From assembly GCA_964231325.1 (NCBI GenBank), contig CAXRIF010000003.1, forward strand, positions 866,927-930,926: a DNA stretch of 64,000 nt, in the 5' to 3' direction. The notes beneath the pieces are model-generated. The model saw only the letters and a list, made by a program, of their open reading frames with translations, did not search any database and was not told where the DNA came from. Shown here in pieces: positions 13,094-31,671 of the stretch. Position 1 is the first letter of the stretch. Every line of letters begins with the position of its first letter. The position numbers and the translations under genes were made by a program. The DNA comes from Rickettsiales bacterium. Lineage in GTDB: Bacteria; Pseudomonadota; Alphaproteobacteria; Rickettsiales; SXRF01.

Positions 13094-13645
13094 CTAGTTT
13101 ATTTTGGAGGGTGCTGTTGTCTTCCAGTGCGACAATAGACTATCAAACCCCGTACGAAGATCGTTGATGACATTTTCTATTTTGGTTGCATTTGCTTTTG
13201 TGACGCGCTTCTGCATTTTTAGAAATGGTGGTCTTTCGTTGTAAACGCATAAGCTGAGTAATAGCGCTGCATGATTATGTTCATGAAGTATTTTTATTGC
13301 TTCCATATATTCCTGTTCTCTTTCTTTCCTCCACTCAAGATCATATAGTTTGTTTTCAGTTCCACCCAAGTGGGTAGGGTCAATGGCGCGTGCACCTGGT
13401 GCACCATAACGTAGTGTGTAGAGCCATCTTAGATGCATCCCGCTCCAATGCTGTTCGCGAGAAATAATCTCACGCTCGAGGCATAAATCTAGTGCTTCAG
13501 CTGTTTCTCCGATGGCGCGCTTTCTTATGAGCTCTGGAGTTCCCATATCAATTTCTGGCTTAATGGTTTTGGGTCTTCCCCGTTTTCTTGGAAAGCGTAA
13601 AATTGTTGCGCTGTTCATATAATCATCGTTTTTCTTGTATTTCAT
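13094..13645 (-). CDS. DUF6456-like protein, putative GafA/GafZ-type GTA activator
   Basis: RKRGRP AT-hook-like segment; ALDLCLEREIISREQHWSGMHLRWLY and YMEAIKIL..LLLSLCVYNE resemble DUF6456; adjacent to the GTA cluster. Confidence 0.6.
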   Translation of the reverse strand: MKYKKNDDYMNSATILRFPRKRGRPKTIKPEIDMGTPELIRKRAIGETAEALDLCLEREIISREQHWSGMHLRWLYTLRYGAPGARAIDPTHLGGTENKLYDLEWRKEREQEYMEAIKILHEHNHAALLLSLCVYNERPPFLKMQKRVTKANATKIENVINDLRTGFDSLLSHWKTTAPSKIN

Positions 13646-13676
13646 TTATGATTCCTACGTAACTTTTAGGGTTGGT

Positions 13677-14171
13677 TCATTTTGTCCAAGGGCCAGCAAT
13701 TACATTGCTTGATTGCTGAGAAGGAGAAGAGGGCGGTGACGATTTGATAGATCGTTTAGCTGCCGCTGCGCGCTTGGCTTTTCTTTCCTGATAGCGCTTT
13801 CCTTTTCCTGGGGCGGCTCTCCATGCAACGGGGGAGACAAGGGCTTTTTTTGCTTTTCGGCGTACATAGTTAGGATCGAGCCCAGCGAGCGTGCAGACAT
13901 ATACAAAGTCTTTGCTGTTATCTGATAGCCAGCGAATAGCTTCATCTTTGTGGTAGCGTGCCTCAGAGTTGTTTGCTTTACTAAGCGCATCCATCATGGC
14001 CTGCGTAATAACAGCGACCCATAGGGCAGTCTCTCCTCGAACTACCGAGTGTGGATCATCAAACCAAGGGATTCCTGTGCGTTTATATTTTTTTCTTGCT
14101 ATGGGTTGTTTGTTTTGAGAGGGCTGGTTAGGATTGGCAGTATCAGTTTTGATATTCGTATCTTGATTCAT
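13677..14171 (-). CDS. Hypothetical phage-type protein, co-transcribed with the DUF6456-like gene
   Basis: AGGAGG RBS before ATG 14171; LWVAVITQAMMDA..AIRWL..DFVYVCTLAGLDP motif seen in phage-associated proteins. Confidence 0.7.
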   Translation of the reverse strand: MNQDTNIKTDTANPNQPSQNKQPIARKKYKRTGIPWFDDPHSVVRGETALWVAVITQAMMDALSKANNSEARYHKDEAIRWLSDNSKDFVYVCTLAGLDPNYVRRKAKKALVSPVAWRAAPGKGKRYQERKAKRAAAAKRSIKSSPPSSPSQQSSNVIAGPWTK

Positions 14172-14227
14172 CGGTAGCCTCCTCGATTTTGCGCTATATT
14201 GGGACAACCCGGAGTATTTATATGGGG

Positions 14228-14263
14228 TTATCTGGATATTTCCAGATAAATAGAGATATATCC
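14228..14263. promoter_or_regulatory. Operator-like palindrome upstream of the putative GTA activator operon
   Basis: Perfect inverted repeat TTATCTGGA-TATT-TCCAGATAA (14228-14249); related box AGATATATCC 20 bp after its GGATATTTCC core. Confidence 0.5.
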
Positions 14264-14360
14264 TAATATTTCGTATTGGAAGAGGAAATTATAAATTATT
14301 TCACAACTGTATTAGATGCTGAATTAAATGATGAATCGAGCCTGAAAAAATAAAATATGC

Positions 14361-14714
14361 TTACATCCAGATGTGAGCGGAAGTGCTGTCCGTTTTTTCA
14401 GATTTATCGCTATCGCGCTCTCTATCTACCTTTTCACGGTGTGTAAGAGATAATTTATCTAGAAAATGTAGCCCATGATGATCGTCGACTAGCTCGCTAT
14501 CGTAGGCACAAGCTAAAATAGCTGCCTTGAGTTCACCTGCATTGTAGCTCGCCAGAGGAATTCCAAGTAGGCGTAATTCTTCAACAACGCTCTCTGGCAA
14601 GGTTACGCCATTTATAACATGCTGATCTGCATAAGGATTTGGTGCTCCATATTGTGTTAGGTCTGTAGGCTCTAACTGACCAAGATTTGATAAAGAACAG
14701 TCTGTCATTTGCAT
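14361..14714 (-). CDS. Hypothetical protein
   Basis: AAGGAG RBS; 117 aa; C-terminal THREKVDRER motif. Confidence 0.65.
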   Translation of the reverse strand: MQMTDCSLSNLGQLEPTDLTQYGAPNPYADQHVINGVTLPESVVEELRLLGIPLASYNAGELKAAILACAYDSELVDDHHGLHFLDKLSLTHREKVDRERDSDKSEKTDSTSAHIWM

Positions 14715-14911
14715 GTAATAAATACGCTCCTTCTATGATTCTAACTATAGCACATGGCCTATTAAAAAGGGGTTATGTATCTGTGAATGCGAATATTACA
14801 GAAAAATGACGGTGATTATGACAATGAAAACCGTAGATATGCCCTTCCTGAGCAGGTTTTATTGCTTAAAATGATAGTGTAGTGCTTTGTAACCATCGCT
14901 TTAGGAGAAAA

Positions 14912-15247
14912 ATGACAGATTCTGGCGATATTCATAGGTTAGCCGGCATTACCCGCAATATGATTGGCCATCTTGAGCAAGCGGTTGAGCTTAATGACCA
15001 GGGGCTACTAGACGAAGCTAACCCACTGGCTAAAACCTATGGCAGATTGTTTGGAAGTAAGGCCTCTTATGTTGATATTCTGACGGACCTTTCGGTGTTG
15101 ATGATTAAGCTACATACGACCAGCCAAACACTGGAAAAAAAGGATGAGACTGAAGAAAGTGATGCGCAACATATTAATATGGATGCCAAAGATATGCAGC
15201 TCATCAAAGCATTTATAGATCGGCAAAAAACTCAGTCGAAACCATAA
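14912..15247 (+). CDS. Putative terminase small subunit (assigned by position)
   Basis: About 111 aa, helical-looking, AGGAG RBS, ends 17 nt before terL. Confidence 0.5.
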   Translation: MTDSGDIHRLAGITRNMIGHLEQAVELNDQGLLDEANPLAKTYGRLFGSKASYVDILTDLSVLMIKLHTTSQTLEKKDETEESDAQHINMDAKDMQLIKAFIDRQKTQSKP

Positions 15248-15264: not shown

Positions 15265-16665
15265 GTGACGTACGCCTTGTTGGACTGGTATGACGATATA
15301 GTTGCGTTTGATTTTCCAACTTTCATTGGAAAAACATTATCGACTGTAGATCCGGCAGCTGAGTATCTACCAAATTGGCATATTGATCTGTTAGCAGAAT
15401 ATTTAGAAGCGGCGCGGCGAAACGAAATATCTAGGCTTATTATTAATATGCCTCCGCGTTCGCTGAAGTCTGTTTGTGTAAGTGTGGCATGGCCAGCGTG
15501 GCTTTTAGGTAAAGATCCGCGCAGCAGAATTATTGCCGCGAGTTATGCTTCTTCCTTAAGTGTAAAACACTCGATAGATAGCCGGCTAGTGGTGACGTCT
15601 GAGTGGTATAAAAAAATATTCCCAGATGTAAAAATTAGCCGTGATCAAAATGAGAAATATAAATTCATTACCACGCAAAGAGGATATCGGCTTGCGACAT
15701 CTGTTGGCGGGAGTGTGACAGGCGAGGGCGGTAATTATCTCATCATTGATGACCCGCTTAATCCTGCGCAGGCAATGAACTCTCTTAGAAGAGATGCGGC
15801 TAATCGTTGGTTCGATCATACATTTTCAAGCAGATTAGATGATAAAAGATTAGGGGTTATTGTGCTGGTAATGCAGAGGTTGCACCAGCATGATCTAACC
15901 GGACATCTGCTTGCTAAAGGGGGATGGGAGCATTTGTGTTTACCTGCGGTGGCAACAGAACGTACGGTTTATCATTTGGGAAAAGTTGCTCATGTTCGAG
16001 AAGAAGGTGAATTGCTGCACTCTGCGCGTGAGGATGAGGGGCTGATTGCGCGCGCTAAGATAGAGCAGGGGAGCTCTGTATTTTCTGCGCAATACCAGCA
16101 GATGCCGGTGGTTGATGATGGTGAAATGGTGCGCCCATGGTGGATAGGAAGATATAAAGCTCCACCGGCTCATTTCTCTCGTATCGTACAAAGCTGGGAT
16201 ACAGCCATTAAAACCGGGATGAAAAATGATTCGAGCGCTTGTCTTACATTTGGCGAAAGTGACGGAAAAAGTTATTTGCTCGATGTATTCTCCGGAAAAG
16301 CGGAATACCCTGATTTGAAGCGGATGTTTTTTTCAACGGCAACACGTTTCCAGCCTCATGTTATTTTGATTGAGGACAAAGCCAGTGGACAACAGCTATT
16401 GCAAGATGTTCGCCGTGAAACAAAGCTCCCTGTGGTAGCTATCAACCCTAAAGCGGATAAGCTGACCAGGTTTGCTGCTGTTTCTGCCCTAATTGAAGCA
16501 GGTAGGTTACATTTGCCGGAGCAGGCGAGTTGGCTTGCTGATTTTGAAGCGGAGTTATATGCATTTCCAAATGGGAATCATGATGATCAAGTAGATGCGC
16601 TAAGCCAGTATCTTGATTGGGTGCGTGGTGAAACGTGGAATCATCTACGCATACGCAATATTTAA
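15265..16665 (+). CDS. terL: Terminase large subunit
   Basis: INMPPRSLKS Walker A variant, LIIDDP Walker B, VMQRLH, SWDTA, FPNGNHDDQVDA nuclease motif. Confidence 0.95.
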   Translation: MTYALLDWYDDIVAFDFPTFIGKTLSTVDPAAEYLPNWHIDLLAEYLEAARRNEISRLIINMPPRSLKSVCVSVAWPAWLLGKDPRSRIIAASYASSLSVKHSIDSRLVVTSEWYKKIFPDVKISRDQNEKYKFITTQRGYRLATSVGGSVTGEGGNYLIIDDPLNPAQAMNSLRRDAANRWFDHTFSSRLDDKRLGVIVLVMQRLHQHDLTGHLLAKGGWEHLCLPAVATERTVYHLGKVAHVREEGELLHSAREDEGLIARAKIEQGSSVFSAQYQQMPVVDDGEMVRPWWIGRYKAPPAHFSRIVQSWDTAIKTGMKNDSSACLTFGESDGKSYLLDVFSGKAEYPDLKRMFFSTATRFQPHVILIEDKASGQQLLQDVRRETKLPVVAINPKADKLTRFAAVSALIEAGRLHLPEQASWLADFEAELYAFPNGNHDDQVDALSQYLDWVRGETWNHLRIRNI

Positions 16666-16787
16666 AAATAAAAATTTTTTCATTTTGTCCCTTCCTGACC
16701 ATACCGGGTATGGGTACTTTATAAATATAGGCTCACATAAGTGTCTCTGAAGACAATGAGCATTCCCACATATTCCGGAGGATTCGC

Positions 16788-18062
16788 ATGGCTACTATGC
16801 ATAAGCATCGTAATCGCAAAAAAAACTCGTTTGCAGGTTTTTTGAATAATATGTTTTCTAAAAAAACAGAAAAGAAACATGCGCGAAAAAATATTTATGA
16901 TGATCTGCTCGGTAGTGCTGGTATGCGCTCATACATGGTAATGCCGGGTCAGGCGGTATGGATGGATCGTGATTATTCACAATTTGCCGAAGAAGCGTAT
17001 ATCCGAAATGTTGTGGCACATCGTGCGATAGAGATGGTGGCGTCTGCAGCTGCATCTGTGGCCATTGACTTGAATCAAATTAGTGCGAAAGGCGCGAGGC
17101 GAGAGCTTAAGGCACACCCTGTCCTCGATGTTTTGCGTAAACCAAACCCGACACAGGGAATGGGTGATTTCTTTAAGGCGCTATATAACTATCGCCTCAT
17201 TAGTGGAAATGCGTTCGTGCAGGCCGTTGGGCCGAAAAATAACGCTCCTACAGAGCTGCATTTGTTGCGTCCTGACAGGGTGGCTGTGGTGGCAGGAAAA
17301 GGTACGTTGCCATCCGGTTATCGTTACACAGTGGGCGATAAATATATTGATTTTCCAGTAGATCGGATTAGCGGGAGGTCACGTATCCTTCATATTAAGT
17401 CTTTCCACCCATATAATGATTGGTATGGTTTATCACCAGTAGAGGCGGCTGCTTATAGTATTGATCAACATAACCAGTCCAGCGCATGGAACCAGGCGCT
17501 GCTGCAAAATGGTGCAAGGCCTAGCGGGGCATTAGTTGTGAAGTCCGATGCCAACAACATGGGAACCTTATCGGAAGATCAATATACACGTGTGAAACTG
17601 CAAATTGATGAGCAGTTCACGGGTACTGTAAACGCTGGAAGGCCATTGTTGCTTGAAGGTGGGCTCGATTGGAAAGAAATGAGCCTTACACCGAAAGATA
17701 TGGATTTTGTAGAGGCAAAAAATTCATCTGCCCGCGATATTGCCCTCGCTTTTGGCGTGCCACCGCAGTTGCTAGGTATTCCTGGTGATAATCGCTACAG
17801 TAATTTGCAGGAAGCAAGGCTGGCGTTATGGGAGCAAACGGTAATTCCGTTGGTGAATTGTACGGTTGATATGCTGAATAGTTGGCTGCTACCGCAATAT
17901 GCCAATAATCTGGAATTGGTTGCTGATACAGATGCCATTTCAGCGCTTGCTGCACGTAACCAGATTATATGGGATCGCGTGGAGAAGGCGACATTCCTAA
18001 CTGATGACGAAAAACGTGCGGCAGTAGGGTATGGCCCACGCGATAAAGTAAAAAGCAATTAG
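16788..18062 (+). CDS. HK97-family portal protein (GTA g3-like)
   Basis: LHLLRPDRV, YGLSPVEAA, NGARPSGAL, LLEGGLDWK, ALAFGVPPQLLGIPGDN. Confidence 0.96.
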   Translation: MATMHKHRNRKKNSFAGFLNNMFSKKTEKKHARKNIYDDLLGSAGMRSYMVMPGQAVWMDRDYSQFAEEAYIRNVVAHRAIEMVASAAASVAIDLNQISAKGARRELKAHPVLDVLRKPNPTQGMGDFFKALYNYRLISGNAFVQAVGPKNNAPTELHLLRPDRVAVVAGKGTLPSGYRYTVGDKYIDFPVDRISGRSRILHIKSFHPYNDWYGLSPVEAAAYSIDQHNQSSAWNQALLQNGARPSGALVVKSDANNMGTLSEDQYTRVKLQIDEQFTGTVNAGRPLLLEGGLDWKEMSLTPKDMDFVEAKNSSARDIALAFGVPPQLLGIPGDNRYSNLQEARLALWEQTVIPLVNCTVDMLNSWLLPQYANNLELVADTDAISALAARNQIIWDRVEKATFLTDDEKRAAVGYGPRDKVKSN

Positions 18063-18116
18063 ACTTGCACGTTTGAAATAAATCTGTTGTGCTTCCCATG
18101 AGTGAGTTGAGGGAAG

Positions 18117-18692
18117 ATGAGATTAAAAAACACTAAATCTAGCTATGGAGCAGTTGCTAAGTGCTTTCACTGGCTTATGGCTATTTTAATTATTGGGTTG
18201 ATTATTGTTGGTTTTGTAATGACCGATATGCAAGGAAGCCCCGATAAATTTAGGCTTTATGGGCTACACAAGTCGGTAGGTGCATCTATATTGCTATTGG
18301 TTTTGTTGAGACTAATTTGGAAGTATAAAAATATATCACCCGAATTGCCGGATTCTCTAGACTCTTGGCAAAAGCTAGGAGCAAAAGCCAACCACTGGGT
18401 ATTGTACGGTTTGATGATTGCTATGCCACTTAGTGGCTGGGCTATGTCTTCTGCGGCAGGGTTTTCTGTTTCGGTTTTTGGGTGGTTTACATTGCCTGAT
18501 ATTGTGTCCGCAGATAGGGAGCTGTTTTTGCTGTTTAGGCAGGCCCACGAGACAATAGGCTACCTTATTATTATAACCGTTTTGCTACATATTACTGCTG
18601 CACTCTTGCATCATTTCTATTACGGCGATAACATATTAAGTCGGATGTTGCCGTCGTTTAAAAAGGGATTTGATGAAAAAAGCGCTGATTAG
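18117..18692 (+). CDS. Cytochrome b561 (YceJ/CybB family)
   Basis: FHWLMA, LHKSVG, HWVLYGLMIAMPLSGW, LHITAALLHH. Confidence 0.93.
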   Translation: MRLKNTKSSYGAVAKCFHWLMAILIIGLIIVGFVMTDMQGSPDKFRLYGLHKSVGASILLLVLLRLIWKYKNISPELPDSLDSWQKLGAKANHWVLYGLMIAMPLSGWAMSSAAGFSVSVFGWFTLPDIVSADRELFLLFRQAHETIGYLIIITVLLHITAALLHHFYYGDNILSRMLPSFKKGFDEKSAD

Positions 18693-19245
18693 TTTTGCCG
18701 TTGCCGCAATTAGCTTTGTCACACCTGCATTTGCAGAGGTATCGTCGTATGATGTAGTAAAGCATAAAAGCCTAGTTCGTTTTTTTGCAATTCAGAATGG
18801 CGCGCCAGTTGAGGGGCGTTTCGATGAATATACAATGGACATCAAATTCAGCCCTGATGATGTGGAAAATAGCAAAATTGTTGTTGAAATAGATATGGCT
18901 AGCCTGCGTACTGCACACGAAGATGTGTCAACAAACTTAAAGCTTCCCGAATGGCTTTCTACGGAATTATTTCCTAAAGCAAAATTTGTTTCTAAGAAAA
19001 TAAACAGGACTCCATCTACTAATAATTATTTTGCAGATGGAGATCTGACGTTACGTGGAAAAACAATGCCTGTTACCATTAATTTTCAGATGGAAGACCT
19101 GATCAACAAAGACTTTGCGCTGGCCAAAGGCTATGCCACGCTACATCGCCTTGATTTTGGTGTAGGCCAGGGTGAATGGGCTGATGACAAGGTGATTAAA
19201 AACGAAGTTCGTGTAGATTTTCGGATCGTTGCTAAGAAGCAATAA
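18670..19245 (+). CDS. YceI family periplasmic lipid/polyisoprenoid-binding protein
   Basis: Signal peptide; GDLTLRGKTMPV, RLDFGVG; typical partner of cytochrome b561. Confidence 0.92.
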   Translation: MMKKALISFAVAAISFVTPAFAEVSSYDVVKHKSLVRFFAIQNGAPVEGRFDEYTMDIKFSPDDVENSKIVVEIDMASLRTAHEDVSTNLKLPEWLSTELFPKAKFVSKKINRTPSTNNYFADGDLTLRGKTMPVTINFQMEDLINKDFALAKGYATLHRLDFGVGQGEWADDKVIKNEVRVDFRIVAKKQ

Positions 19246-19302
19246 TACCCCCTAGTAGTATTATCATTATTTTTAACTCGTAGATGTAATCTGGGAGCAC
19301 TC

Positions 19303-19902
19303 ATGTATTACGACAAAAAGATAGGAGACCGCTTGCACGAATGTAAGCGGCTTGATTTTTCATTGGACGTGAAAACATTGGATATAGATGGCCGTTTTGC
19401 TGGCTATGCCAGTGTTTTTGATGTGGTAGACAATCATCGGGATATAATCCTATACGGGGCGTTTGCTAAAACGCTTTTGGGAAGAATTCCTTCAATAAAG
19501 CTTTTGTGGCAACACCAGCAGGATGAACCTATTGGTGTCTTCAATCGTATGTTTGAAGATGAAAGAGGGTTGTATGTAGAAGGGCAGTTGTTGCTAGATG
19601 TGCAGCGGGCAAAAGAGGCCTATGCGTTATTGAAGGCGGAGGCCATTAGTGGCCTGTCAATTGGTTACTCGCCTATTAGTTATCACGTGGATGAAGAGAC
19701 GGGGATTCGCCGTTTAAGTGAAGTGGATTTATGGGAAATTAGTCTTGTGACGTTTCCGGCTAACTCCGAGGCAAATGTAACCGTTGTTAAGGGGGGTAGG
19801 CTTGAAGCATATGAGCCTGAATGGGAAACTGCGCGTAAAACGGGCCAGTTAATTGAATTGGCCGATGCCCTTGATATGGCTACGCGTAGCCTGAACAACT
19901 AA
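19303..19902 (+). CDS. HK97-family prohead protease (GTA g4-like)
   Basis: FAGYASVF, LLWQH, GLSIGY, LWEISLVTFPAN. Confidence 0.96.
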   Translation: MYYDKKIGDRLHECKRLDFSLDVKTLDIDGRFAGYASVFDVVDNHRDIILYGAFAKTLLGRIPSIKLLWQHQQDEPIGVFNRMFEDERGLYVEGQLLLDVQRAKEAYALLKAEAISGLSIGYSPISYHVDEETGIRRLSEVDLWEISLVTFPANSEANVTVVKGGRLEAYEPEWETARKTGQLIELADALDMATRSLNN

Positions 19903-19918
19903 ATATCTGAACAGACCG

Positions 19919-19948
19919 ATAGCCCACTACTGACGGGCTATTTTTTTT
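19919..19948 (+). terminator. Intrinsic terminator-like hairpin between protease and capsid genes
   Basis: ATAGCCC-ACTACTGAC-GGGCTAT followed by a T-run to 19948. Confidence 0.6.
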
Positions 19949-19974
19949 GTATTTTTAACCGTAATGAGGAAACT

Positions 19975-21174
19975 ATGAGTATATCTGAAATTACTGAACG
20001 TGTATCGACATTGGGTCATGCATGGGAACAGTTTAAACAAGTGAATGACGCTCGCTTAAATGAGATCGAGCGTAAAGGCAATGCTGATCCGCTTTATAGT
20101 GAGCATTTGCATAATATTAGTAATGTGCTGGATAATTATAAATCACGTCTTGATCAAATTGAGACTGCTTATAATCGTCCATCGCTTGATGATAACGTGC
20201 TGGGGCAAAAATCTACTTCATCTAATGGTGAATATAGCAAGGCCTTCCGTAATTATCTGCGTAAAGGTATGGATGCTGGCCTGGAGGCCCTACAAACTAA
20301 AGCGCTTTCGGTTGGCTCTGATCCTGATGGTGGTTATTTAGTAACGCCTACGATGTCTTCTAAGATTGTACAGGCGATTTTTGAAACTTCACCAATGCGT
20401 CAACTGGCATCAATTGAAACGATTTCATCTGATGCGCTTGAGATGATTGACGATCATGATGAAGCAGAGGCTGGCTGGACTACGGAGACCGCTGTAGTTA
20501 CAGAAACAGACACCCCAACTATTGCGAAACGCAATATTCCTACTCATGAACTTTATGCTCAACCAAAAGCAACACAGAAACTCGTTGATGATGCTGCTAT
20601 TGATGTTGAGTCATGGCTTGCGGACAAAATTTCGGACATTTTTGCCCGCAAAGAGAATACCGCATTTGTTAGTGGTGATGGCGTTGGTCAGCCTCGTGGT
20701 ATTTTAAGCTATGCTGCGGGTACTAGTTGGGGCCAGATTGAACAAATTGATTCCGGTTCTGATGGTGCAGTTACTGCTGATGGCCTGATTAATTTGTTTT
20801 ATTCGCTGAAGGATGAGTATAGCAAACGTGCCAGCTTCCTGATGAATCGTACTGTTGTGCAATCTGTACGTCTGTTAAAAGAAGCAACTACCAATCAATA
20901 TCTATGGCAACCGGGCCTTGCTGCTGGTACTCCGGATACCCTAATGGGGGTACCTGTGCATTTGGCGGCCGATATGCCTGTTGCTGCAAGTGATTCACTT
21001 TCAGTGGCGGTAGGTGACTTCAAATCTGCTTATCAGATTGTAGATCGTCATGGTATTCGTATTCTTCGTGATCCGTTTACCGAGAAACCTTTTATCAAAT
21101 TCTATGCAACTAAACGCGTAGGTGGCGATGTGGTTAATTATGATGCTGTTAAACTGTTGAAATTAGCAGCCTAG
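19975..21174 (+). CDS. HK97-fold major capsid protein (GTA g5-like)
   Basis: DGGYLV, ELYAQPKATQKLVDDA, GDGVGQPRG, RDPFTEKPFIKFYATKRVGG. Confidence 0.97.
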   Translation: MSISEITERVSTLGHAWEQFKQVNDARLNEIERKGNADPLYSEHLHNISNVLDNYKSRLDQIETAYNRPSLDDNVLGQKSTSSNGEYSKAFRNYLRKGMDAGLEALQTKALSVGSDPDGGYLVTPTMSSKIVQAIFETSPMRQLASIETISSDALEMIDDHDEAEAGWTTETAVVTETDTPTIAKRNIPTHELYAQPKATQKLVDDAAIDVESWLADKISDIFARKENTAFVSGDGVGQPRGILSYAAGTSWGQIEQIDSGSDGAVTADGLINLFYSLKDEYSKRASFLMNRTVVQSVRLLKEATTNQYLWQPGLAAGTPDTLMGVPVHLAADMPVAASDSLSVAVGDFKSAYQIVDRHGIRILRDPFTEKPFIKFYATKRVGGDVVNYDAVKLLKLAA

Positions 21175-21179
21175 CTATT

Positions 21180-21227
21180 CTGAAGGTTGTGGGAGGCCCG
21201 CTAATAGTGGGGTTCCCACAATTTCAG
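21180..21227 (+). terminator. Long hairpin after the capsid gene (terminator or mRNA stabiliser)
   Basis: CTGAAGGTTGTGGGAGGCCCGCTA pairs imperfectly with TAGTGGGGTTCCCACAATTTCAG. Confidence 0.6.
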
Positions 21228-21285
21228 TGCGCAAATGCCACAGAGGGTTCTGAAAATTGCTATTTCTCACAGAGTTATTGCTCAT

Positions 21286-21300
21286 TTAATGCTTTTTTAA
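21286..21300. promoter_or_regulatory. CtrA-binding box TTAA-N7-TTAA
   Basis: TTAA-TGCTTTT-TTAA, followed by TTGACC, upstream of the gene at 21364. Confidence 0.55.
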
Positions 21301-21363
21301 GCTCCTTGACCTATGAATGGGCATGAGTTAAGCTATTGAATATTGGTTATAGAGGTTATTTTA

Positions 21364-21726
21364 GTGTCTAAACTTACCCGTACAGAACAAATCATAGCAG
21401 AAAAGACTGTATGTATTTTGCTGGTTCGTGGTGAAAACCCGGATGGTGGCACGATATACGCTTATGTTGCGATCAGAGCAGATAGGCTCGAAGCCTTTAT
21501 GGAGGCGCAGCAGCAAGGTACGTTCTATCCCGAGGATTACGGCATCATTGTTGAATCTGGTGAGGGTGAACCTTCTGACGAAGTAAAAGAAAAAATGACT
21601 AAAGAATATGGGTTTAACCATGATGCGATGCTTGATATAGGGAGCACTGAAAAAGCTCACGATATTAGCAGCAATATAACAACCTACATGACCTCTTCAG
21701 GTGGAGATGAACCTAAGGAAGAGTAG
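21364..21726 (+). CDS. Small hypothetical protein (family with 8244..8540 and 39688..40005)
   Basis: GAGG RBS before GTG 21364; LLVRG..YAYV..PEDYGIIVESGEGEPSDEVKEKMTKEYGF. Confidence 0.8.
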   Translation: MSKLTRTEQIIAEKTVCILLVRGENPDGGTIYAYVAIRADRLEAFMEAQQQGTFYPEDYGIIVESGEGEPSDEVKEKMTKEYGFNHDAMLDIGSTEKAHDISSNITTYMTSSGGDEPKEE

Positions 21727-21757
21727 TCTCTTAGCCGCTCTTAGCCTGTTTTCAATA

Positions 21758-21775
21758 TTCATATAATCGTCATAT
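21758..21775 (+). promoter_or_regulatory. Pho-box-like 11-bp direct repeat
   Basis: TTCATAT-AATC-GTCATAT upstream of 21837. Confidence 0.4.
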
Positions 21776-21836
21776 TTTTGCGTTTTTGATGTGCTATCTT
21801 ATAGTGGGGTAAACTACATTCCCCGAGAGAGGGTAT

Positions 21837-22595
21837 TTGGTGACATCAAGAAGCGGACAATACAGTGGTGGCAATGGTGGCAGATCTCGGTTTGCTATCA
21901 GGGTAGCCAATTTTGTAGACTCGAATAGCTTCCGCCAGTCGGCTGGTTTTACTGGTGCTGAGTTCGTTTCCATGGGGGTTTCCCTAGGGGTTGTTGGTGT
22001 TGCAGATCAGATTGCTCCACATGCATTGGAAAAAGCCAGTAAGGCGCTCTCGAAAGCAGTAATTGAGCCTTATTTGGATAGTATCGAGGGTACGCTAAAC
22101 CGTCTCTGTAAGCTTGAAGAATGTAAAGTTGATACCAGTAAATCACGTGAGGAAAGAGCAGAAAGGCTCGCCCATACGACGATTGTGTTTAGTGCTGCCT
22201 GGGTAATAAGTATGGCGGCAAAAATTGCAACACGTCGTGTGTTAACCCAAAAAATTCCCGCACATGATCCTGATGGTGCACATTACCGTCCGCATCCTGA
22301 TGACAAAAAAGTGTTTAAGATGTCTAAGCACGAGTGGAAACTGCTGGGTGCAGATGAGGGGGTGCATTATGGCTCATTGCTTCTGCTCAATACTAGTGCG
22401 GCAAAAGTTACAGATGAATTGATTAAGACTAGTACAAATATTTTGACGAAATGTGGGATGCCTGAGAAAAAGGCGCATGAACTCTCTTCCATGGCAATGA
22501 TCTGGGAACTTCCTAATTTGCTAGGGTGGGGAGCTGGAGTTGGTGTTATATCGCACTACAACGAGCATGACTGGGGCCAGAAGGCCAAATTTTAA
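21837..22595 (+). CDS. Hypothetical membrane-associated protein
   Basis: 252-aa ORF with several hydrophobic segments; GAGAGGG RBS. Confidence 0.7.
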   Translation: MVTSRSGQYSGGNGGRSRFAIRVANFVDSNSFRQSAGFTGAEFVSMGVSLGVVGVADQIAPHALEKASKALSKAVIEPYLDSIEGTLNRLCKLEECKVDTSKSREERAERLAHTTIVFSAAWVISMAAKIATRRVLTQKIPAHDPDGAHYRPHPDDKKVFKMSKHEWKLLGADEGVHYGSLLLLNTSAAKVTDELIKTSTNILTKCGMPEKKAHELSSMAMIWELPNLLGWGAGVGVISHYNEHDWGQKAKF

Positions 22596-22789
22596 TTTCT
22601 CTTATTGTTATGAATGTTTTGATGCTATCGACCCGATATGGGTGCGAGGATGGGTTTCGTGTATCCATTTTTAGAAAAAACAATCGCTATTTAATTGCAC
22701 ACACATTAGCTGCAAGCTTTGTCCGAAATGGTTGGGCAGTGCCAATATAATATACCCACTATGGGTACTTCTATTTTCTGGAGAATTTT

Positions 22790-23341
22790 ATGACTATATT
22801 GCGTAATCGCTCTTTGGTTCGTGTTGTCGCGCCTACCAATGAACCAATTACCCTCACTGAAGCAAAACTGTATCTACGTGTAGATCGCGCAGATGAAGAT
22901 GTGTTGATTAACGACTTGATTGTGGCGGCACGTATGCACGCTGAATACTGGCTCAAGCGATCTATTTTAACGCAGACATGGAAACTGGCGTATGATGACT
23001 ACCTTACGGAAGAAGTGCTTTTGCCTATGGGCCCGGTAAGTAGTATTGATAATGTTACCATCATAGACCGTGATGAAGACAGTGAAGTCCTCGATAGTGG
23101 CTTGTATTATTTAAATGCCGCTAAAGATGCAATTATTTTTGACGAGTGCTTATCAGCGCATAGAATAGAAATTACCTATGTTACGGGATATGGCGATGCC
23201 TCTATGGTTCCCAAATCTATCAAACAAGGTATGCTTTCGCATATAGCTTCAATGTATGATGGAAGGGGCGAGGGGACTGGGCATGTGCTTCCTGAGCAAA
23301 GCGTGTGTCTTTATATGCCATTTAGAGAGGTGTCGCTATGA
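22790..23341 (+). CDS. Head-tail connector / adaptor (GTA g6-like)
   Basis: EPITLTEAKLYLRVD, AARMHAE, TYVTGYG, VPKSIKQ. Confidence 0.92.
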   Translation: MTILRNRSLVRVVAPTNEPITLTEAKLYLRVDRADEDVLINDLIVAARMHAEYWLKRSILTQTWKLAYDDYLTEEVLLPMGPVSSIDNVTIIDRDEDSEVLDSGLYYLNAAKDAIIFDECLSAHRIEITYVTGYGDASMVPKSIKQGMLSHIASMYDGRGEGTGHVLPEQSVCLYMPFREVSL

Positions 23342-23679
23342 GACGCCGTAAGCACAATACTAGTTCAAAATTGCGGCAAAGGCTTACTCTACAGCAAGAA
23401 ATGCGTACCAGTGATGAGGCTGGTGGGTATACTCGTAGCTGGATTGACATTGCTGACTTATGGGCTGAAATTATTCCTATGCGGGGAAGTGAAAAGGTTT
23501 TTGGCAACCAAGTTCAGGCAGCAGTTACTCACAAAATTAAACTACGCTACCGAGAAGATGTTAAACCGGAGATGCGTTTACAATATGATAATCGGGTATT
23601 CAATATACGCCATGTGATTAACATATCTGAAATGAATGAGGTGCTGGAAGTGCTGGCTGAAGAAGGTGTAGCCGCTTAA
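23338..23679 (+). CDS. Head closure / stopper protein (GTA g7-like)
   Basis: LRQRLTLQ, DEAGGYTRSW, WAEI, THKIKLRYR. Confidence 0.92.
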   Translation: MRRRKHNTSSKLRQRLTLQQEMRTSDEAGGYTRSWIDIADLWAEIIPMRGSEKVFGNQVQAAVTHKIKLRYREDVKPEMRLQYDNRVFNIRHVINISEMNEVLEVLAEEGVAA

Positions 23680-24140
23680 TGGCTTAGTGCAAGTTCCTGG
23701 TTGCGCCTTAATATAGACATAGAAAAGAGTAATAATTTAATGTGCTCGCGGAACCTTGCGACCCATTCACGGTTTGCCTTTAATTTACAACTAACGCACA
23801 AATCTTGAAGAAATTGGATCGCGCTATCAAAGCTGAATGTTTCCAGTGCTGTGATAAACTTTTCGGTATCAGGAAGAGGGATGCGTTTGGCTTGTAAATA
23901 GACCCCCTTGAACAAGCTATGGACGGCATCATGCCATGGTTGATAGGCTTCGGCATAGGCTGGGCCGGCATGTTCTATTATATCTTCCAGATAATATTCA
24001 ACGCGGATTAAGGTGGGCTGATAGAGTTTAAGAAACTGTTCGAAGACACGCTGTGCGCCCTCGGTATCTTCCTCTCCCTTTGGAGGTATTATTATTAATT
24101 CTTCCCCCATACTCACCACTATAGCAAATTTTTGTGACAC
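23676..24140 (-). CDS. Hypothetical protein inserted antisense between stopper and tail terminator
   Basis: 154-aa ORF filling the gap; its stop codon overlaps the stopper stop. Confidence 0.65.
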   Translation of the reverse strand: MSQKFAIVVSMGEELIIIPPKGEEDTEGAQRVFEQFLKLYQPTLIRVEYYLEDIIEHAGPAYAEAYQPWHDAVHSLFKGVYLQAKRIPLPDTEKFITALETFSFDSAIQFLQDLCVSCKLKANREWVARFREHIKLLLFSMSILRRNQELALSH

Positions 24141-24184
24141 TTTTATGAACGCATGCAGATTTTATGCATTGTTAAGGACATAAT

Positions 24185-24589
24185 ATGACGAATTTTAGCC
24201 ATCACGCCCTACACAAGGCGATCTATCAAAAGCTTACCGAAGACGCTACATTAATAAATGCTGTAAATGGTGTCTTCGATCTTGTGCCTCAAGGGCAGGA
24301 ATACCCATATATTACTATTGGGGAGTCCACGACTAGTGATTGGTCAACCAATACGACTACAGGAACTGAGCACTTGCTTACTATTCATGTCTGGAGTCGT
24401 GAAGGTGGAAAAAAAGAAACAGAGTTGTTAATGGAGAGAATTCATACTTTATTACATGATGGCAGCCTGACTATAGACGATCAGACATTAGTTTTAAGTC
24501 GGTTTCAATCCAGCTCTATTGAACTTGAAGGGGACGGGTGGACCAACCATGGGCGAATGCGTTTCAGAATGCTATTAGAAGCTGATTAG
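24185..24589 (+). CDS. Tail terminator DUF3168 (GTA g8-like)
   Basis: ALHKAIYQKL, VFDLVP, YPYITIGE, DWST, EHLLTIHVWSR. Confidence 0.92.
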   Translation: MTNFSHHALHKAIYQKLTEDATLINAVNGVFDLVPQGQEYPYITIGESTTSDWSTNTTTGTEHLLTIHVWSREGGKKETELLMERIHTLLHDGSLTIDDQTLVLSRFQSSSIELEGDGWTNHGRMRFRMLLEAD

Positions 24590-24591
24590 GT

Positions 24592-25317
24592 TTAGGAAGC
24601 AGGAAGATTCTTGGAAAGTGAAGAAATATAGTCTGCATATTGTGATTGCAGGGTTTCCATATTGCCATCGTCACAACTTATCATAGAATACATTTCTTGG
24701 TAGGAGCCCTGTGCGGCAGTTACAATATCGTATTGTAATCGACCTGGTGCGTTCATCGATGCCATTTCCTGGCTTAATGAAGAAATAATAATATGGTAAT
24801 CAGTTGGCATGGCTAACTCGCATTTTTTTAGAAAAAAATGGGTGACTAGAATTTCTTCATAGCGTTTTTTTAGTGCATCTATTTTAGGTTGAATGCCAGA
24901 GAGTGATGACTCTGGGTTATAGACATCATGCACATCTTGCGGTTCGTTTTCTTTAGAAGAAGTCGGAGGAGGCGCGGGAGAAGTGTTTTGAGTTTTTTCC
25001 ATTAATGTTAGCAACGATTCAGCTAAGGACTCTTTCTCTTTCTCGAGTTGTTGCTGCGATATTTGAAGAGTGCCAATAGTCTGATTTGCCTTATATAAGT
25101 TCCAATCGAGCAAGGCGAGAAACAAAGAATAAAAGAATATAATACAAGTTAATTGCAGAGGCTTTGATCGTACAAAATACCTGAGCCAGATTTTGGGGGG
25201 AGAATTAATTTTAAATCTCGGTTCATTTGTTTGAGATTTTCGTTCGTAGTAGTGCCAATAAAGAAAGGCGCCCAGAATTATCAGTAAGAAAAACCAAAGG
25301 ATAAAGCGTGTGAGCAT
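24592..25317 (-). CDS. Hypothetical membrane protein (two TM segments, coiled coil, C-terminal domain)
   Basis: 241-aa ORF translationally coupled to the upstream lectin-like gene. Confidence 0.7.
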   Translation of the reverse strand: MLTRFILWFFLLIILGAFLYWHYYERKSQTNEPRFKINSPPKIWLRYFVRSKPLQLTCIIFFYSLFLALLDWNLYKANQTIGTLQISQQQLEKEKESLAESLLTLMEKTQNTSPAPPPTSSKENEPQDVHDVYNPESSLSGIQPKIDALKKRYEEILVTHFFLKKCELAMPTDYHIIISSLSQEMASMNAPGRLQYDIVTAAQGSYQEMYSMISCDDGNMETLQSQYADYISSLSKNLPAS

Positions 25318-25739
25318 TATTGCTCCTCTTTCACCACGGATTCATTGCATTCGATTTGTAGTTTGCGGGAAATTGCGGATATTTCTCTAATGCGATCATA
25401 AGAGAAGCAGCGATACTCTACCTTGAGTAGTTTATCGGAGCAGCGGATAGCTGGGTCTTTTCCCAGTGTCTCAGTGTTAACTGGTATGGTACACTCTGAC
25501 TTTCCATCACAAAGGTTTGTTACGGCCTCTATCACGTTGTCGTCGCGTAGAGTTTTGGGAGGGGTTCTGTACCTTTGAATACAATTTAGCCCCCAGCTAG
25601 CATGTACTATCGAAATTTTATAAGGGTTATTATCAATAGTAACCACTTGTTTATCTGATGGGGTTTGTGAAGCCTGCCATATGAGCGATATGACAATTAC
25701 GATGGCGGCAATGACAAGCAGGTGAGCTTTAAATGACAT
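25317..25739 (-). CDS. Membrane-anchored protein with SUEL / rhamnose-galactose-binding lectin-like domain
   Basis: ISIVHASWG..C..VTNLCDGKSECTIPV..LGKDP..C..KLLKVEYRC matches the SUEL cysteine pattern. Confidence 0.7.
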   Translation of the reverse strand: MSFKAHLLVIAAIVIVISLIWQASQTPSDKQVVTIDNNPYKISIVHASWGLNCIQRYRTPPKTLRDDNVIEAVTNLCDGKSECTIPVNTETLGKDPAIRCSDKLLKVEYRCFSYDRIREISAISRKLQIECNESVVKEEQ

Positions 25740-25898
25740 ATTGCTTATTATCCAGGTTGTTAGTGGCTTATATGGCAGATTTATATTATGTTACTATGCT
25801 TGTAAAATATTAATATACTGATAAACAATAAGAAAATTTTTTGACGCTGGGTGAATGGTGTTGGGGTAATATCGTTATTTTACAGTGTATTATGCTGG

Positions 25899-25916
25899 CT
25901 GTCATAAAAGTGCCAT
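25899..25916 (+). promoter_or_regulatory. Pho-box-like site
   Basis: CTGTCATAAAAGTGCCAT matches CTGTCATAWAWCTGTCAY at 16 of 18 positions; extra TGTCATAAAA half-site at 25951. Confidence 0.5.
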
Positions 25917-26082
25917 TTTTCTTGAGAGTTTAATTCCTCCTTCTTCTAAATGTCATAAAAAACAAATGTAAGGCTTTGGGCTAACTTGTTATACTATTAC
26001 TGACTGGAAATAGGTGATTTTTTGCATTTGGTGTGCATTCGTTGCCTGATTTATAATACGATGAGGATAGTCAGTAGATAGA

Positions 26083-28077
26083 ATGTCGGGTTTTGGTGAA
26101 AATAGCTATGGTTCTCGAGGGGGCGGTAATACCGTTGTTTCTCCTGAAGACATGCGCCAAGAATATGAACGACTGCTTAGTGGAAAGGGGCTGACAAAAA
26201 GCCTTGAGATTACTACCGATAAAGACGGTAAGGCTAAGTGGATGTTCATGACGCTGCCTGCTGATGTGGCGGGGTTGTTGGAATATGGCTTGAATGTAAT
26301 GAAGCCATGGCTCAACCAAAAGGGTATTGATTTTCTTTATAAAAAGACTGAGAGTGCGTGGAAGTCTTATTCTAAGTCAGATGTTGCTGCGCACAAGGCA
26401 GGGTTAAACGCAGCCAAAATTTTTACGGCTGTTTTGGTGGGATCTGAACCCGTTAATGATCTGGTTCGTATACATTCCGACTACAGAAGCGATCGTAGAG
26501 ATCTTTTCAAAAGTATAGCGCCAGCACTGGATGCATCAGATGGGCGAAAGAAAAATAATGAAGTTATAAAGAAATCGCTAGATCGGGTTCATGGCCATGC
26601 AATGACGAACCTAAAGAAATTTGCTGCTGACCTGCCAACTTTGGCGCTCATCAGTACATATGCTGTATTGGATTATGGCGCTCTACGGGATAGAAAAACG
26701 GCCGAGTTTAAGCGACGTGAGTTGGCCTCAAAGCCTGAAAGCCAAACCTTCTCGGAGCTAGATAAATTGGCTACTCAGAGGCAAGAGTTCTTGGATACTC
26801 AAGAACATAAATTCTTTGAGGAATACCGTAATAAGAAAAACCCTCGTACTGGCAAAAACTATGAAGATGCAGAAATAGAGGGTAAATGGAATACTAAAAA
26901 AGAAGAATATATCGCCGGATTTAGGGCCAAGGATAAAATACGGAATTCTATTCCTCAGGAACACACACATAATAAATCATCTGATCGAGATACCACTATG
27001 TTGCCAGCAATGATTGGTGTGGGTGGTCTAAGTCAGATTCTAAAATCACGGCTTGATAATGCGGATCGTGAAAGACCGAAAATTGCCCTCGACCTTATCA
27101 TGGATTTGCAAAAGGATATGGATCAAGGACATCACGTTAATAACTTAAACAATAGAATTACTGAAATTTTTCAGCAAAATGAACGTGATCATGGAAGAGA
27201 TGTTATTGGCCCAAAACTTCTGCCACAACTTGAACCGGCGATTGGTGCTATTGCAGATGTTATCAACGACGGGCGCTTGAATCCACTGGCTTTGATAAAT
27301 CTGGTAGGTGAGGGCGGTATTATTGTTCGGCATGATGGTATGCGCAGTTTTGCAACAGCGCAACAAGCTGATGAGCTGATTAATAAGCAGCTAAAAATAT
27401 TAAGTTCTAGAGAGCTGATGAAGGCAGAAGAGTTCTTTGCAAACTTTGCTGACCCACAATTGGTAGAACAAACATTGAAAACTAATTTATCTTCGATGCA
27501 AGGCGTAGAAAAGGCAATGTTTGCCTCCCTTTTTCCAGAAGATATTCTGCTGAGGGCCGGTTTAAAAAAGCGTGAGATTGTGGATCTACACAAAGAAGCG
27601 CATGAACATATGTATGGTTTTGTCGCGGCTTCCGTTATTGCTCTTGCGAAAAAAGATCCTGAATATTTGATCAATGCTGGTATTACCGAAAATGACATTG
27701 ATAAACTCAAAGATTTCTCAAAACAGTTGGAGAGTGAAGGCCTGGATGCTGCAAAATCTGTAGTGGATGGTAAGGATAAAACCATCATCGATATTGTTCG
27801 CACGGCTGGCCTGAATGAGCAAATTAGTACAGGTAAAAACCCCTGGGTAGAAAGAGTGAAATCAACCAAAGATACGCATGAAAAGCTTGATAAAGTAGCC
27901 GCTGATAATTCCGCGGATGATAATGCTGAACCGCGTAGGCATGCTTCTGGTGATCGAGATAATGAAGAATATCGTCATCGTAAAAACACCAAAAATCGTG
28001 GTTCGAGCGCTAGGGAGCGGGTGACGTCTGAGCGTAATCGTGACACTGATTCATCCGATGGGCTGGCTATCAGCTAG
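26083..28077 (+). CDS. Large hypothetical protein (664 aa), helical and charged, effector-like
   Basis: Long ORF, no recognised family; disordered charged C-terminal tail. Confidence 0.8.
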   Translation: MSGFGENSYGSRGGGNTVVSPEDMRQEYERLLSGKGLTKSLEITTDKDGKAKWMFMTLPADVAGLLEYGLNVMKPWLNQKGIDFLYKKTESAWKSYSKSDVAAHKAGLNAAKIFTAVLVGSEPVNDLVRIHSDYRSDRRDLFKSIAPALDASDGRKKNNEVIKKSLDRVHGHAMTNLKKFAADLPTLALISTYAVLDYGALRDRKTAEFKRRELASKPESQTFSELDKLATQRQEFLDTQEHKFFEEYRNKKNPRTGKNYEDAEIEGKWNTKKEEYIAGFRAKDKIRNSIPQEHTHNKSSDRDTTMLPAMIGVGGLSQILKSRLDNADRERPKIALDLIMDLQKDMDQGHHVNNLNNRITEIFQQNERDHGRDVIGPKLLPQLEPAIGAIADVINDGRLNPLALINLVGEGGIIVRHDGMRSFATAQQADELINKQLKILSSRELMKAEEFFANFADPQLVEQTLKTNLSSMQGVEKAMFASLFPEDILLRAGLKKREIVDLHKEAHEHMYGFVAASVIALAKKDPEYLINAGITENDIDKLKDFSKQLESEGLDAAKSVVDGKDKTIIDIVRTAGLNEQISTGKNPWVERVKSTKDTHEKLDKVAADNSADDNAEPRRHASGDRDNEEYRHRKNTKNRGSSARERVTSERNRDTDSSDGLAIS

Positions 28078-28184
28078 ATCCCGTTGTGGTTGGGGGCGCT
28101 TAACCACCTAAAATTTATAGTGTATTCTGAGTTTTGATGCTTTTTTTGAGTTTTAGGCTCTCAAATAGCTAACCTCCTTGATCC

Positions 28185-28211
28185 GTCATAAATAATTCAT
28201 ACAAAAGCCAT
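28185..28211 (+). promoter_or_regulatory. Triple 11-bp-phased Pho-box-like repeat
   Basis: GTCAT (28185), TTCAT (28196), GCCAT (28207); TATAAT at 28234. Confidence 0.45.
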
Positions 28212-28259
28212 GGGATTTGCCTGCCTTGTCGCGTATAATCTAAGGTATGGAATTAGGTC

Positions 28260-30026
28260 TTGGATATTCAAATGGTTAATGGCACTCAGATAGCCAAAGG
28301 TGTTGATGCGGTGATAGATACGCGCCAGTCTTTGCGCGTGAGCTCTAGAGCGCGCCGTGCAGCGACGGGAAATGGCGCTGGTTCAGGAGCGCCGAATGCT
28401 GCTAAAACTGAAGCTTCGATGAGCCCAGATCAGGTGGCTGCAAGTAAACAGCTTCAAGTTGAAGATGCCATGTATGCGCCGGGTATGTCTGACAAGTTAC
28501 TTGGTGGTGCCGGTACTGCTGTTGGTATTGGTGGCATGGTACCATTTATTGGGCCTGCGGCGTTAAAAATTGCTGCGTTCCCTTTTAGCAAGATTGGTGA
28601 ATGGACTAAATCTGAAGGACTTCAGAGTTTGGGTGCGAAGATTAGCAAGCCGGCCAGAGCTTTTGAGGAGGCAACTTTTGCATCGGCGGGTGAGCGACTT
28701 GGAATTGGTGGTGCGGTGGGTAAGGCATCGCAAACGTTAGCAAATGGTGCTGGTGCTGTTGCCGAAACTGTTGATAAGCGAGTGCATGTAGGTAGAAAGC
28801 TGCAAGGGCGTGCGGTAGGCAGAGCACACAGACATCTACTCTCTGCACAGGACCATGCCACAAAATTAGAGCTTTCAGAGATTCCTGCTAAACACAGAAG
28901 TCATTTTAGAGCATTGCACGACCATGTTACTGGAGCAGCGCACACAGGAGATTTGGCGACAACGGAAACTGTACGAATTGCAGAACAGAATGCAAAAGGT
29001 GCAGTAGGTACGATTGAACGGACAGTTCCAAAAGCATCCCTTACAAATGCGTTGAGTGGTGCAGAAGAAGCGCTAGAAGATCTTGCCAAAAGTGGCGCTA
29101 GTAGGAAGACTGTTAAACAAGCGAGAAACTTTGTAAGTAGCGCTGGAAAAATGTCTGACAGCATGGCGCATGCAGGGGCAATAAACGAGGTTGGTCATTC
29201 TATTCGCTCCGTGCCCGGTAAACTAGGTCAAGCTAAGCTTGGACACGGCCTGATGAACGGCGCGTTTATCGCCGGCTCTGGCGTGTCGATGGTAAGTGAC
29301 GCAAAGACTTTCAAAGGGCGCCTAAAGATGCTCAAAGAAATGTATGCGGACATGACTGGTACTCCCATTGCGAAAGTGTCTACGGCTAAAGTAATGCTAG
29401 GTGCTGTGCCTGAGCCAGTGCGTGTGGCACGTAAACTGATCGTTAAGAAGCTGGCTATACGTGAAGCGACCGATACTATTGGTATGGGCGTAAATATTCG
29501 CCAAGCCGTGGATCGTCGTTTTAATGGTCCGCTAGCCATTGCAGCATTTATTTTACCAGAAATGATTGGTAGTAGCGCCGATAGCATGATGGGTGAAACT
29601 GTGCTACCTGCGTACACACAGTTCAAACACTTGCAGCTTGAGGCGAAGGCTGCCGGACAAGAGCTTCCAGCTGAAGCTTACGCAGGATTTGTTGGGGAAA
29701 TAAGCCCTGAATTGAAAAATCGTGGTGGTTCACAAAGCCGTTTTGCACAAGAGCTGGCTAAACAATATGCGGCGGAGAAAAAGACTGCTGCGGAAATAAT
29801 GAATGAGCTTGATAGTGGTGAGCTGCTATCTCGTGTACATAATCTAATCAAAGCGGCATCGGCTGAAAAAGCGGCGGCAGTTGCAGGAGCCGGAGCGGCT
29901 GATACGAAGCAAGTATCACATACACAGCGCCTTGCTGGCGCTAAAGAGGATATGCCAGTGCTGGGCGCGCACACAGAAAAAGTGGCTGCGGAAACACCGG
30001 CAGAAAATGGCGTGGTGAGGAGCTAG
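28260..30026 (+). CDS. Large Ala/Gly-rich hypothetical protein (588 aa) with hydrophobic helices
   Basis: Long ORF; GGAGTAVGIGGMVPFIGPAALKIAAFPF segment; stop abuts the next ATG. Confidence 0.8.
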   Translation: MDIQMVNGTQIAKGVDAVIDTRQSLRVSSRARRAATGNGAGSGAPNAAKTEASMSPDQVAASKQLQVEDAMYAPGMSDKLLGGAGTAVGIGGMVPFIGPAALKIAAFPFSKIGEWTKSEGLQSLGAKISKPARAFEEATFASAGERLGIGGAVGKASQTLANGAGAVAETVDKRVHVGRKLQGRAVGRAHRHLLSAQDHATKLELSEIPAKHRSHFRALHDHVTGAAHTGDLATTETVRIAEQNAKGAVGTIERTVPKASLTNALSGAEEALEDLAKSGASRKTVKQARNFVSSAGKMSDSMAHAGAINEVGHSIRSVPGKLGQAKLGHGLMNGAFIAGSGVSMVSDAKTFKGRLKMLKEMYADMTGTPIAKVSTAKVMLGAVPEPVRVARKLIVKKLAIREATDTIGMGVNIRQAVDRRFNGPLAIAAFILPEMIGSSADSMMGETVLPAYTQFKHLQLEAKAAGQELPAEAYAGFVGEISPELKNRGGSQSRFAQELAKQYAAEKKTAAEIMNELDSGELLSRVHNLIKAASAEKAAAVAGAGAADTKQVSHTQRLAGAKEDMPVLGAHTEKVAAETPAENGVVRS

Positions 30027-31657: not shown

Positions 31658-31671
31658 TTCATAGAGGGTTT

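Follow-up and report, generated by a model that had tools for sequence, protein, structure and literature searches.

In the Caulobacter model of GTA control, GafY aids RpoD at promoters with a degenerate -35 and GafZ anti-terminates, according to the available text of PMC11150451. The published RogA site is GGAA-N4-TTCC (PMC9632790, in its available part), and Q21, BrrG, GafZ and GafA are described as sharing similar features in the accessible portion of 10.1101/2024.11.20.624540. GTA genes are widely kept in Rickettsiales; the words "gafA" and "promoter" occur 0 times in the main text, as far as it was available, of the Rickettsiales GTA survey PMC9254644, and a search of largely non-subscription literature returned no description of the genes or of the CTTCC motif reported here.

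What the present locus offers is a pair of putative activator genes, a putative operator and a motif by which unlinked GTA genes can be picked out; together they make the question of GTA regulation testable with reporters. The main new result is the motif itself, a promoter-like CTTCC-(18/19 nt)-TA that stands before terS, the portal gene and unlinked GTA genes.

A gene pair beside an RcGTA-type cluster

The window (the whole 64,000-nt stretch of DNA that was analysed) belongs to a 1.95-Mb genome in 4 contigs, rated 100% complete, whose nearest relatives are MAGs labelled Rickettsiales or unclassified Alphaproteobacteria. The genes considered here are:

13094..13645, minus strand: gene Z, 183 aa, remotely DUF6456/GafZ-like by profile and fold comparison, predicted anti-terminator
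13677..14171, minus strand: gene Y, 164 aa, small helical phage-type protein with a remote DUF6280 likeness, proposed activator
14361..14714, minus strand: conserved 117-aa ORF, on the same strand as Y and Z, between Y and the cluster
14912..15247, plus strand: ORF in the small-terminase (terS) position, without family match
15265..16665, plus strand: terL, terminase large subunit, by family match
16788..39701, plus strand: RcGTA-type genes by family matches, with non-phage genes between them

The last of these stretches holds portal, prohead protease, capsid, gp6, head completion, gp17, DUF2460, hub, NlpC/P60, GTA-TIM megatron, DUF2793 fibre and lysozyme types, and with the terminase included the RcGTA-type genes span 15265 to 39701. 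By its genes the element is of RcGTA type, with g2-g15-type head-tail genes, dispersed accessory genes and a GTA holin; its tail tube gene lies about 680 kb from the cluster in the same genome, and the search for a tape-measure gene gave weak matches only and no clear identification. Non-phage genes interrupt the cluster at 18117-19245, 21343-22595 and 23676-31022 of the window and include a cytochrome b561-YceI pair (in the same place in relatives), a SUEL-lectin-domain gene and three large ORFs without family. Two Flp/Fap pilin genes (window 12431-12986) lie directly 3' of Z on the same strand and are kept in many loci, and 4352-6022 holds a tandem pair of 277-aa ORFs, each with a type IV pilin-like methylation motif at the N-terminus.

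A preliminary description of this DNA had proposed an activator pair that is linked to the structural cluster and divergent from it. Both genes are real and conserved on the minus strand (Y being 164 aa from its ATG), and Y is present in 47 of 49 related loci. Synteny in relatives likewise bears out a conserved linkage to the RcGTA-type cluster: at loci with at least 5 kb of flank, a divergent terL stands beside the pair in 25/36. It is absent from the other 11, however, and the linkage of Y-Z to the cluster is common, not fixed.

Z as a remote relative of DUF6456

Z had also been said to resemble DUF6456, a likeness that profile and fold methods uphold and Pfam does not. We found 246 relatives of Z; 0 of 52 Z members reach the Pfam gathering threshold of DUF6456 (PF20057), and nothing in the whole genome does. 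In contrast, when compared by hhalign with 30 DUF6456 loci out of a 201-genome class sample, the Z profile matched in register over 128-138 columns, at 91.9% for all 30 loci and 94.2% for the 14 divergent ones, values that became 96.8% and 97.2% with a deeper 191-sequence alignment. Reversed controls gave about 1%, and shuffled ones scored at most half the real score. Against the 16 strongest, canonical GafA/GafZ-type DUF6456 members the match was just 0.9% and 15.8%, and against one Caulobacter GafZ it was 0.15%. A 50-row tree places Z on a long branch of its own beside short divergent members (85/81) and outside the canonical GafZ/GafA set without firm support.

The structural model of Z (pLDDT 82) has a DUF6456 phage protein as its top fold match in BFVD (E 1.2e-3), and Atlas clusters agree; Foldseek against the PDB returned no match. 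In a ranking of 48,161 chains of solved structures the first place went to AlpA (Z-score 5.6, rmsd 4.7, 103 aligned) and the second to a Q complex (5.5, rmsd 5.6, 107 aligned), both scores being under 6 and below the tool's own meaningful level. Several sigma-factor chains came next, with weak matches to sigma region 4. The likeness to AlpA and Q is suggestive only. By profile and by modelled fold, then, Z is a remote relative of DUF6456, through collinear homology or a shared fold, and it is likely to be an anti-terminator of the predicted Q/AlpA/GafZ type. An N-terminal RGRP (AT-hook-like) is near-invariant in Z, and the segment that matches the helix-turn-helix of GafZ is variable, with residues 141-160 conserved at 0.19-0.24. 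Most positive genomes, from many families, carry Z in single copy. Two genomes of a small-genome family in which Y was not detected have Z no more than about 2 kb from the portal gene (L353, L355; G615, G572).

Y as a phage-type protein unrelated to GafY

The two-gene, gafYZ-like order had raised the possibility that Y is a GafY homologue, and profile comparison rejects it: hhalign gave 0.06% against 10 DnaA-like proteins in the gafY position and 0.06-0.08% against Caulobacter GafY, or 1.0% with a deeper alignment. When the genome was searched with a GafY profile, the sole match was a DnaA-sized frame. We found 127 relatives of Y. It matches uncharacterised phage proteins, including 158 stretches in IMG/VR. 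The surroundings of these phage relatives, judged from 69 proteins of the 23 representative loci scanned, are not constant, and some of the relatives lie among head or packaging genes. The core of Y matched DUF6280 (PF19796) at 78.5% over 51 columns in hhalign; this family is matched by 4/58 Y members, under its threshold, and its neighbours at six loci are not GTA genes. DUF6280 is nearly invariant in 26/31 genomes of one alphaproteobacterial family (L305-L324), and no paper in the literature searched names it. Y itself matched no DNA-binding family and no clear fold, VIA-align giving nothing clear. Neither Y nor Z nor the 117-aa ORF was assigned a family by Pfam, PHROGs or NCBIfam, the last being a source that returned no GafY- or GafZ-named match even for canonical examples.

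When 151 genomes of the order were surveyed, 106 proved to carry Y, 69 to carry Z and 109 to carry DUF2460, a marker of the GTA. Y and DUF2460 occurred together in 94 genomes, Y alone in 12, DUF2460 alone in 15 and neither in 30, and the corresponding figures for Z were 59, 10, 50 and 32, kin not being independent in either comparison. The Y family is phage-type and found in most genomes of the order. At 40 wider Y loci, chosen from the 106, Z adjoins Y in 10 and a GTA gene is near in 9; the other neighbours are mostly housekeeping genes, and in several families Y or Y-Z sits among such genes.

A CTTCC promoter-like motif before GTA genes

Three sites in the window carry the motif or its first half:

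14842..14872, plus strand: GTA promoter-like motif (CTTCC ... TAAAAT) before the terS position, matrix score 18.6
16689..16720, plus strand: GTA promoter-like motif ahead of portal, scoring 28.5 on the matrix
14278..14282, minus strand: CTTCC element of the motif at the -35 position of the Y promoter

The motif consists of CTTCC, then about 18-19 nt, then TA...T/C; it stands in this form before terS and portal and with a shorter spacer before Y. Among related loci it precedes the portal gene in 14/24 and terminase genes in 10/28 (two of these apparently misplaced), compared with 0/19 for protease, 0/12 for capsid and 0/27 for pilin genes and a background of 0.024 per 200 nt. The Y promoter scores just 6.8 on the matrix described below; CTTCC lies ahead of the TATATC inside box 1 of that promoter (see below) with -35/-10-like spacing at 14 of 32 loci, and it precedes Y at 10 of the 40 wider loci, where 0.73 would be expected. 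A scan for consensus promoters and terminators gave nothing above chance.

These counts bear on the idea that Y and Z remain from a prophage, or control the Flp pilin genes, and stand beside the GTA genes by inheritance only. The pilin genes that follow Z on the same strand at many loci would fit such an origin, as would the families in which Y or Y-Z lies among housekeeping genes. Even so, we consider it very improbable: Y shares its promoter element with GTA genes and not with pilins (0/27), Y co-occurs with DUF2460, and Z is kept in single copy in most positive genomes across many families.

With a matrix built from 27 relatives' sites (16 portal and 11 hand-picked terS sites, window excluded), 18 sites of the genome score above 20; shuffled single strands of 0.6 Mb, three in number, gave 0, 1 and 0. 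Seven of these 18 precede phage- or GTA-type genes or operons, namely portal, tail tube, a GTA-gp10-like chaperone, a GTA 3TM holin, an HTH small-terminase-like gene, a tail-fibre-assembly operon and an operon with a Mu F-like protein, and six of the seven are unlinked to the cluster. The rest comprise four before a degenerate repeat and seven unassigned ones, not before GTA genes. Of the 2,596 ORFs that start with ATG and encode 100 aa or more, only 11 are preceded by a site above 15, 7 of the 11 being GTA-type or in GTA position, a list from which the tail tube drops through start choice. In three other genomes the motif precedes two tail-tube genes and one holin (0, 1 and 0 of 200 shuffles), and two second copies there are without it; among the test genomes, the tail tube was found in 2/5 and the holin in 1/5. 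No motif site was seen at the capsid, tail and lysozyme genes of the cluster. Scattered GTA genes of this genome share one unusual upstream sequence.

The degenerate repeat occurs in six copies (C2:123158, C2:297731, C3:177607, C3:1174558, C3:998606 and C3:288240; L328, L331, L332, L335, L336). It starts like the small-terminase-like gene at C3:815721 and continues in 10-11-nt tandem units, and five of the six copies have the motif upstream with a score above 18. The repeats may represent decayed copies of a gene, a non-coding RNA or sites with a role in packaging.

Alternatively, CTTCC may be recognised by a host factor, such as an alternative sigma or a cell-cycle regulator, with Y and Z as downstream helpers. 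The arrangement CTTCC-spacer-TA is close to the alphaproteobacterial sigma-70/RpoH promoter consensus, the genome holds a second sigma-70-family gene, and seven of the top sites are not before GTA genes. A host regulon is unlikely to be as narrow as 11 of 2,596 ORFs, 7 of them GTA-type or in GTA position, and the motif is absent from two gafYZ-type controls; on this evidence we regard a host factor as an unlikely reader, marginally less probable than regulation by Z alone (next section).

Which protein reads the motif

Genomes in which one member of the pair was detected offer a contrast. In eight genomes of two families in which Y was found and Z was not, CTTCC stands 58-78 nt before the portal gene in 7/8; in those with Z and no detected Y it does so in 0/5, and in gafYZ controls in 0/2. 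The motif is kept where Y was found without Z and missing where Z was found without Y, which favours Y as the reader. The second half of the contrast is confounded because the genomes concerned are also AT-rich, kinship is a further confounder of the whole comparison, and "not found" in it does not equal absence. Small-genome families that keep Y have the portal motif in just 1/13 genomes.

The same contrast weighs against a division of roles in which regulation falls to Z alone, as a sigma-4-like activator or an anti-terminator, while Y belongs to the regulon and only assists packaging or assembly. A known regulatory fold is present in Z and not in Y, head or packaging genes surround some of the phage relatives of Y, and Y carries an upstream CTTCC like other members of the regulon, all of which would suit an accessory Y. 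However, the variable segment of Z that corresponds to a helix-turn-helix also speaks against it, and we judge regulation by Z alone to be unlikely. The Y-Z pair is likely to be what reads the shared CTTCC sequence.

A candidate operator over the Y promoter

Two elements lie over the Y promoter:

14254..14263, minus strand: box 1, conserved, with the probable -10 of the Y promoter at 14260-14255
14228..14249, no strand: perfect 9-bp inverted repeat, whose core (14234-14243) is a second, less conserved box copy

The preliminary description had drawn attention to the perfect repeat, and to a second related box upstream, as what a RogA-like operator would look like. The repeat is present as described; its perfection is modest evidence, because dinucleotide shuffling of the 189-nt intergenic sequence yields a 9-bp repeat 9 times in 500 and the 64-kb window contains five repeats of this kind. 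The exact repeat was found in 0/79 loci elsewhere. The upstream box, box 1 above, is also present and proves to be the conserved element: matches to GGATATATCC that differ by no more than 1 letter stand ahead of Y in 31/47 loci, window included (one locus with a short flank left out, one mis-cut locus scored as a miss), compared with 21 sites in 594,601 other bases. A weaker copy of the box follows 19-23 bp further in 18/30 loci, against 3/120 control windows, and the two copies in the window are 20 bp apart. The perfect repeat is this window's version of the weaker second copy. Box 1 probably holds the -10 and is probably the first copy of the operator. The box does not define a wide regulon, since the second-best genome match to the palindrome is inside an ORF and most other box matches are in genes.

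The RogA part of the earlier proposal did not stand. The palindrome has the wrong sequence for a RogA site: no GGAA-N4-TTCC with at most 1 mismatch occurs near the Y and Z genes, and with its 10 bp (GG...CC) the conserved box falls 2 bp short of the RogA site. With 213-aa Caulobacteraceae proteins that match both rogA primers published in the available part of PMC9632790 as query, RogA was found in 0/36 genomes (this genome and 35 relatives) and in 3/3 positive controls; the best E in the complete window genome was 0.14.

These results also bear on whether the Caulobacter RogA-GafY-GafZ circuit itself has moved beside the cluster. The two-gene order, the relationship of Z to DUF6456 and the two boxes about 20 bp apart over a core promoter are what such a move would leave. 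But Y is unrelated to GafY and a GafY profile finds just a DnaA-sized frame; the shorter box and the 36 genomes without a RogA match add to this, and the tree puts Z outside canonical GafZ/GafA with moderate support (85/81-87). As far as orthology of Y and RogA goes, the circuit is refuted, and we give its transfer to this place very little credence.

A candidate for the repressor that would bind the box is an HTH-S24 regulator (L085:1183-1875, contig C1) that is divergent from chpT and has a weak match, below cut-off, to the ECH_1013 family. The gene was found beside chpT in 26/35 genomes and was missed in nine that also lack the box, nine that may be one clade. A weaker homologue occurs in three box-less genomes, the gene's own promoter is without the box, and it was not found in five other alphaproteobacterial genomes; it is a weak candidate. 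Another HTH-S24 gene, near trpD, was rejected, being found in 9/35 genomes.

Relatives without the GGATATATCC box are L033, L034, L037, L038, L041-L043 and L045-L047, and six of these loci have a different inverted element upstream of Y. A swap of repressor and operator is possible in the box-less relatives.

A conserved ORF upstream of Y

The preliminary description had missed the 117-aa ORF, which has 19 copies among related loci, window included, and a conserved core. It is preceded at a fixed distance by one further element:

14794..14829, minus strand: TGTCA-type direct repeats, phased at about 11 bp, OmpR/PhoB-family-like, upstream of the 117-aa ORF

A pair score of at least 11/12 for these phased repeats was reached in 11/19 loci with the ORF and in 0/27 without it. 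In a check for a Pho box, made by comparison with the repeats before the phosphate-binding-protein gene, the values were 11/12 in the window and 9/12 in 4/4 relatives. Between the ORF and the Y promoter no clear terminator was seen. PhoB control, with read-through from the 117-aa ORF into Y-Z, is possible.

A proposed GTA switch

The genes, their linkage, the boxes, and the motif with its targets are established from sequence. On this footing we propose, as a somewhat better than even bet, that Y and Z form the on-switch of the GTA, Y activating the CTTCC promoters and Z acting as anti-terminator. A host repressor other than RogA, with the chpT-linked HTH-S24 protein as a weak candidate, would occupy both boxes, which are spaced 20-22 bp and cover the -10 and the start of the Y promoter; by holding this tandem box it would keep Y-Z off. 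Once made, Y would read, or compensate for, the CTTCC that stands in for a normal -35. It might also activate its own promoter through its CTTCC, which would amount to positive feedback. The capsid, tail and lysozyme genes are without the motif and would therefore need read-through from the portal promoter, a job that we propose for Z, which would let RNA polymerase continue from there over about 23 kb that hold genes for head, tail and lysis.

A broader reading is that Rickettsiales GTAs are run by a switch of their own, in which a phage-derived Y family, unrelated to GafY and GafA, reads CTTCC as a fixed non-canonical -35 across a dispersed regulon, together with a divergent Q-like anti-terminator; this we hold more tentatively, as somewhat less than an even chance. 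If true, GTAs can arrive at a logic of activator plus anti-terminator anew, from parts that are not homologous, and Y, kept across most of the order including small host-associated genomes, would be the missing regulator of GTA genes that have long gone unexplained.

Comparison with known systems

DUF6280 (PF19796) is like the Y core by remote similarity and unlike it in that the match lies under the family threshold and its neighbours at six loci are not GTA genes. Lambdoid Q, Pseudomonas aeruginosa AlpA and Bartonella BrrG are the anti-terminators with which Z may be compared, AlpA and the Q complex being its two best solved-structure matches; the locus differs in that this match is weak (Z-scores 5.5-5.6) and that neither a pause element nor a Z-binding element was identified there. 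With GafA of Rhodobacter capsulatus and the split gafA of Hyphomicrobiales, as described in the available text of PMC9638019, Z shares a DUF6456-type domain. Unlike them it is a standalone 183-aa protein, with no DnaA-like N-terminal partner and no sufE/mucR neighbourhood.

The closest comparison is with the control of the Caulobacter crescentus CcGTA, as far as the available texts of PMC9632790 and PMC11150451 describe it. The locus differs in that the first gene is unrelated to GafY, RogA was not found and the box is different; the targets here carry a fixed CTTCC at -35, whereas those papers could derive no GafY motif; the pair is often divergent from the cluster; and the helix-turn-helix segment of Z is variable. 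Both systems nevertheless have a two-gene operon with a DUF6456-related second gene, a degenerate -35 at GTA promoters and a main cluster with scattered accessory genes, and, as at the gafYZ promoter, tandem boxes lie over the core promoter of the operon. The best reading of this combination is that Y-Z may be a non-orthologous GafYZ-like switch outside the RogA-GafY-GafZ circuit; the work in it would be divided as in Caulobacter GafYZ, with other proteins as activator and repressor.
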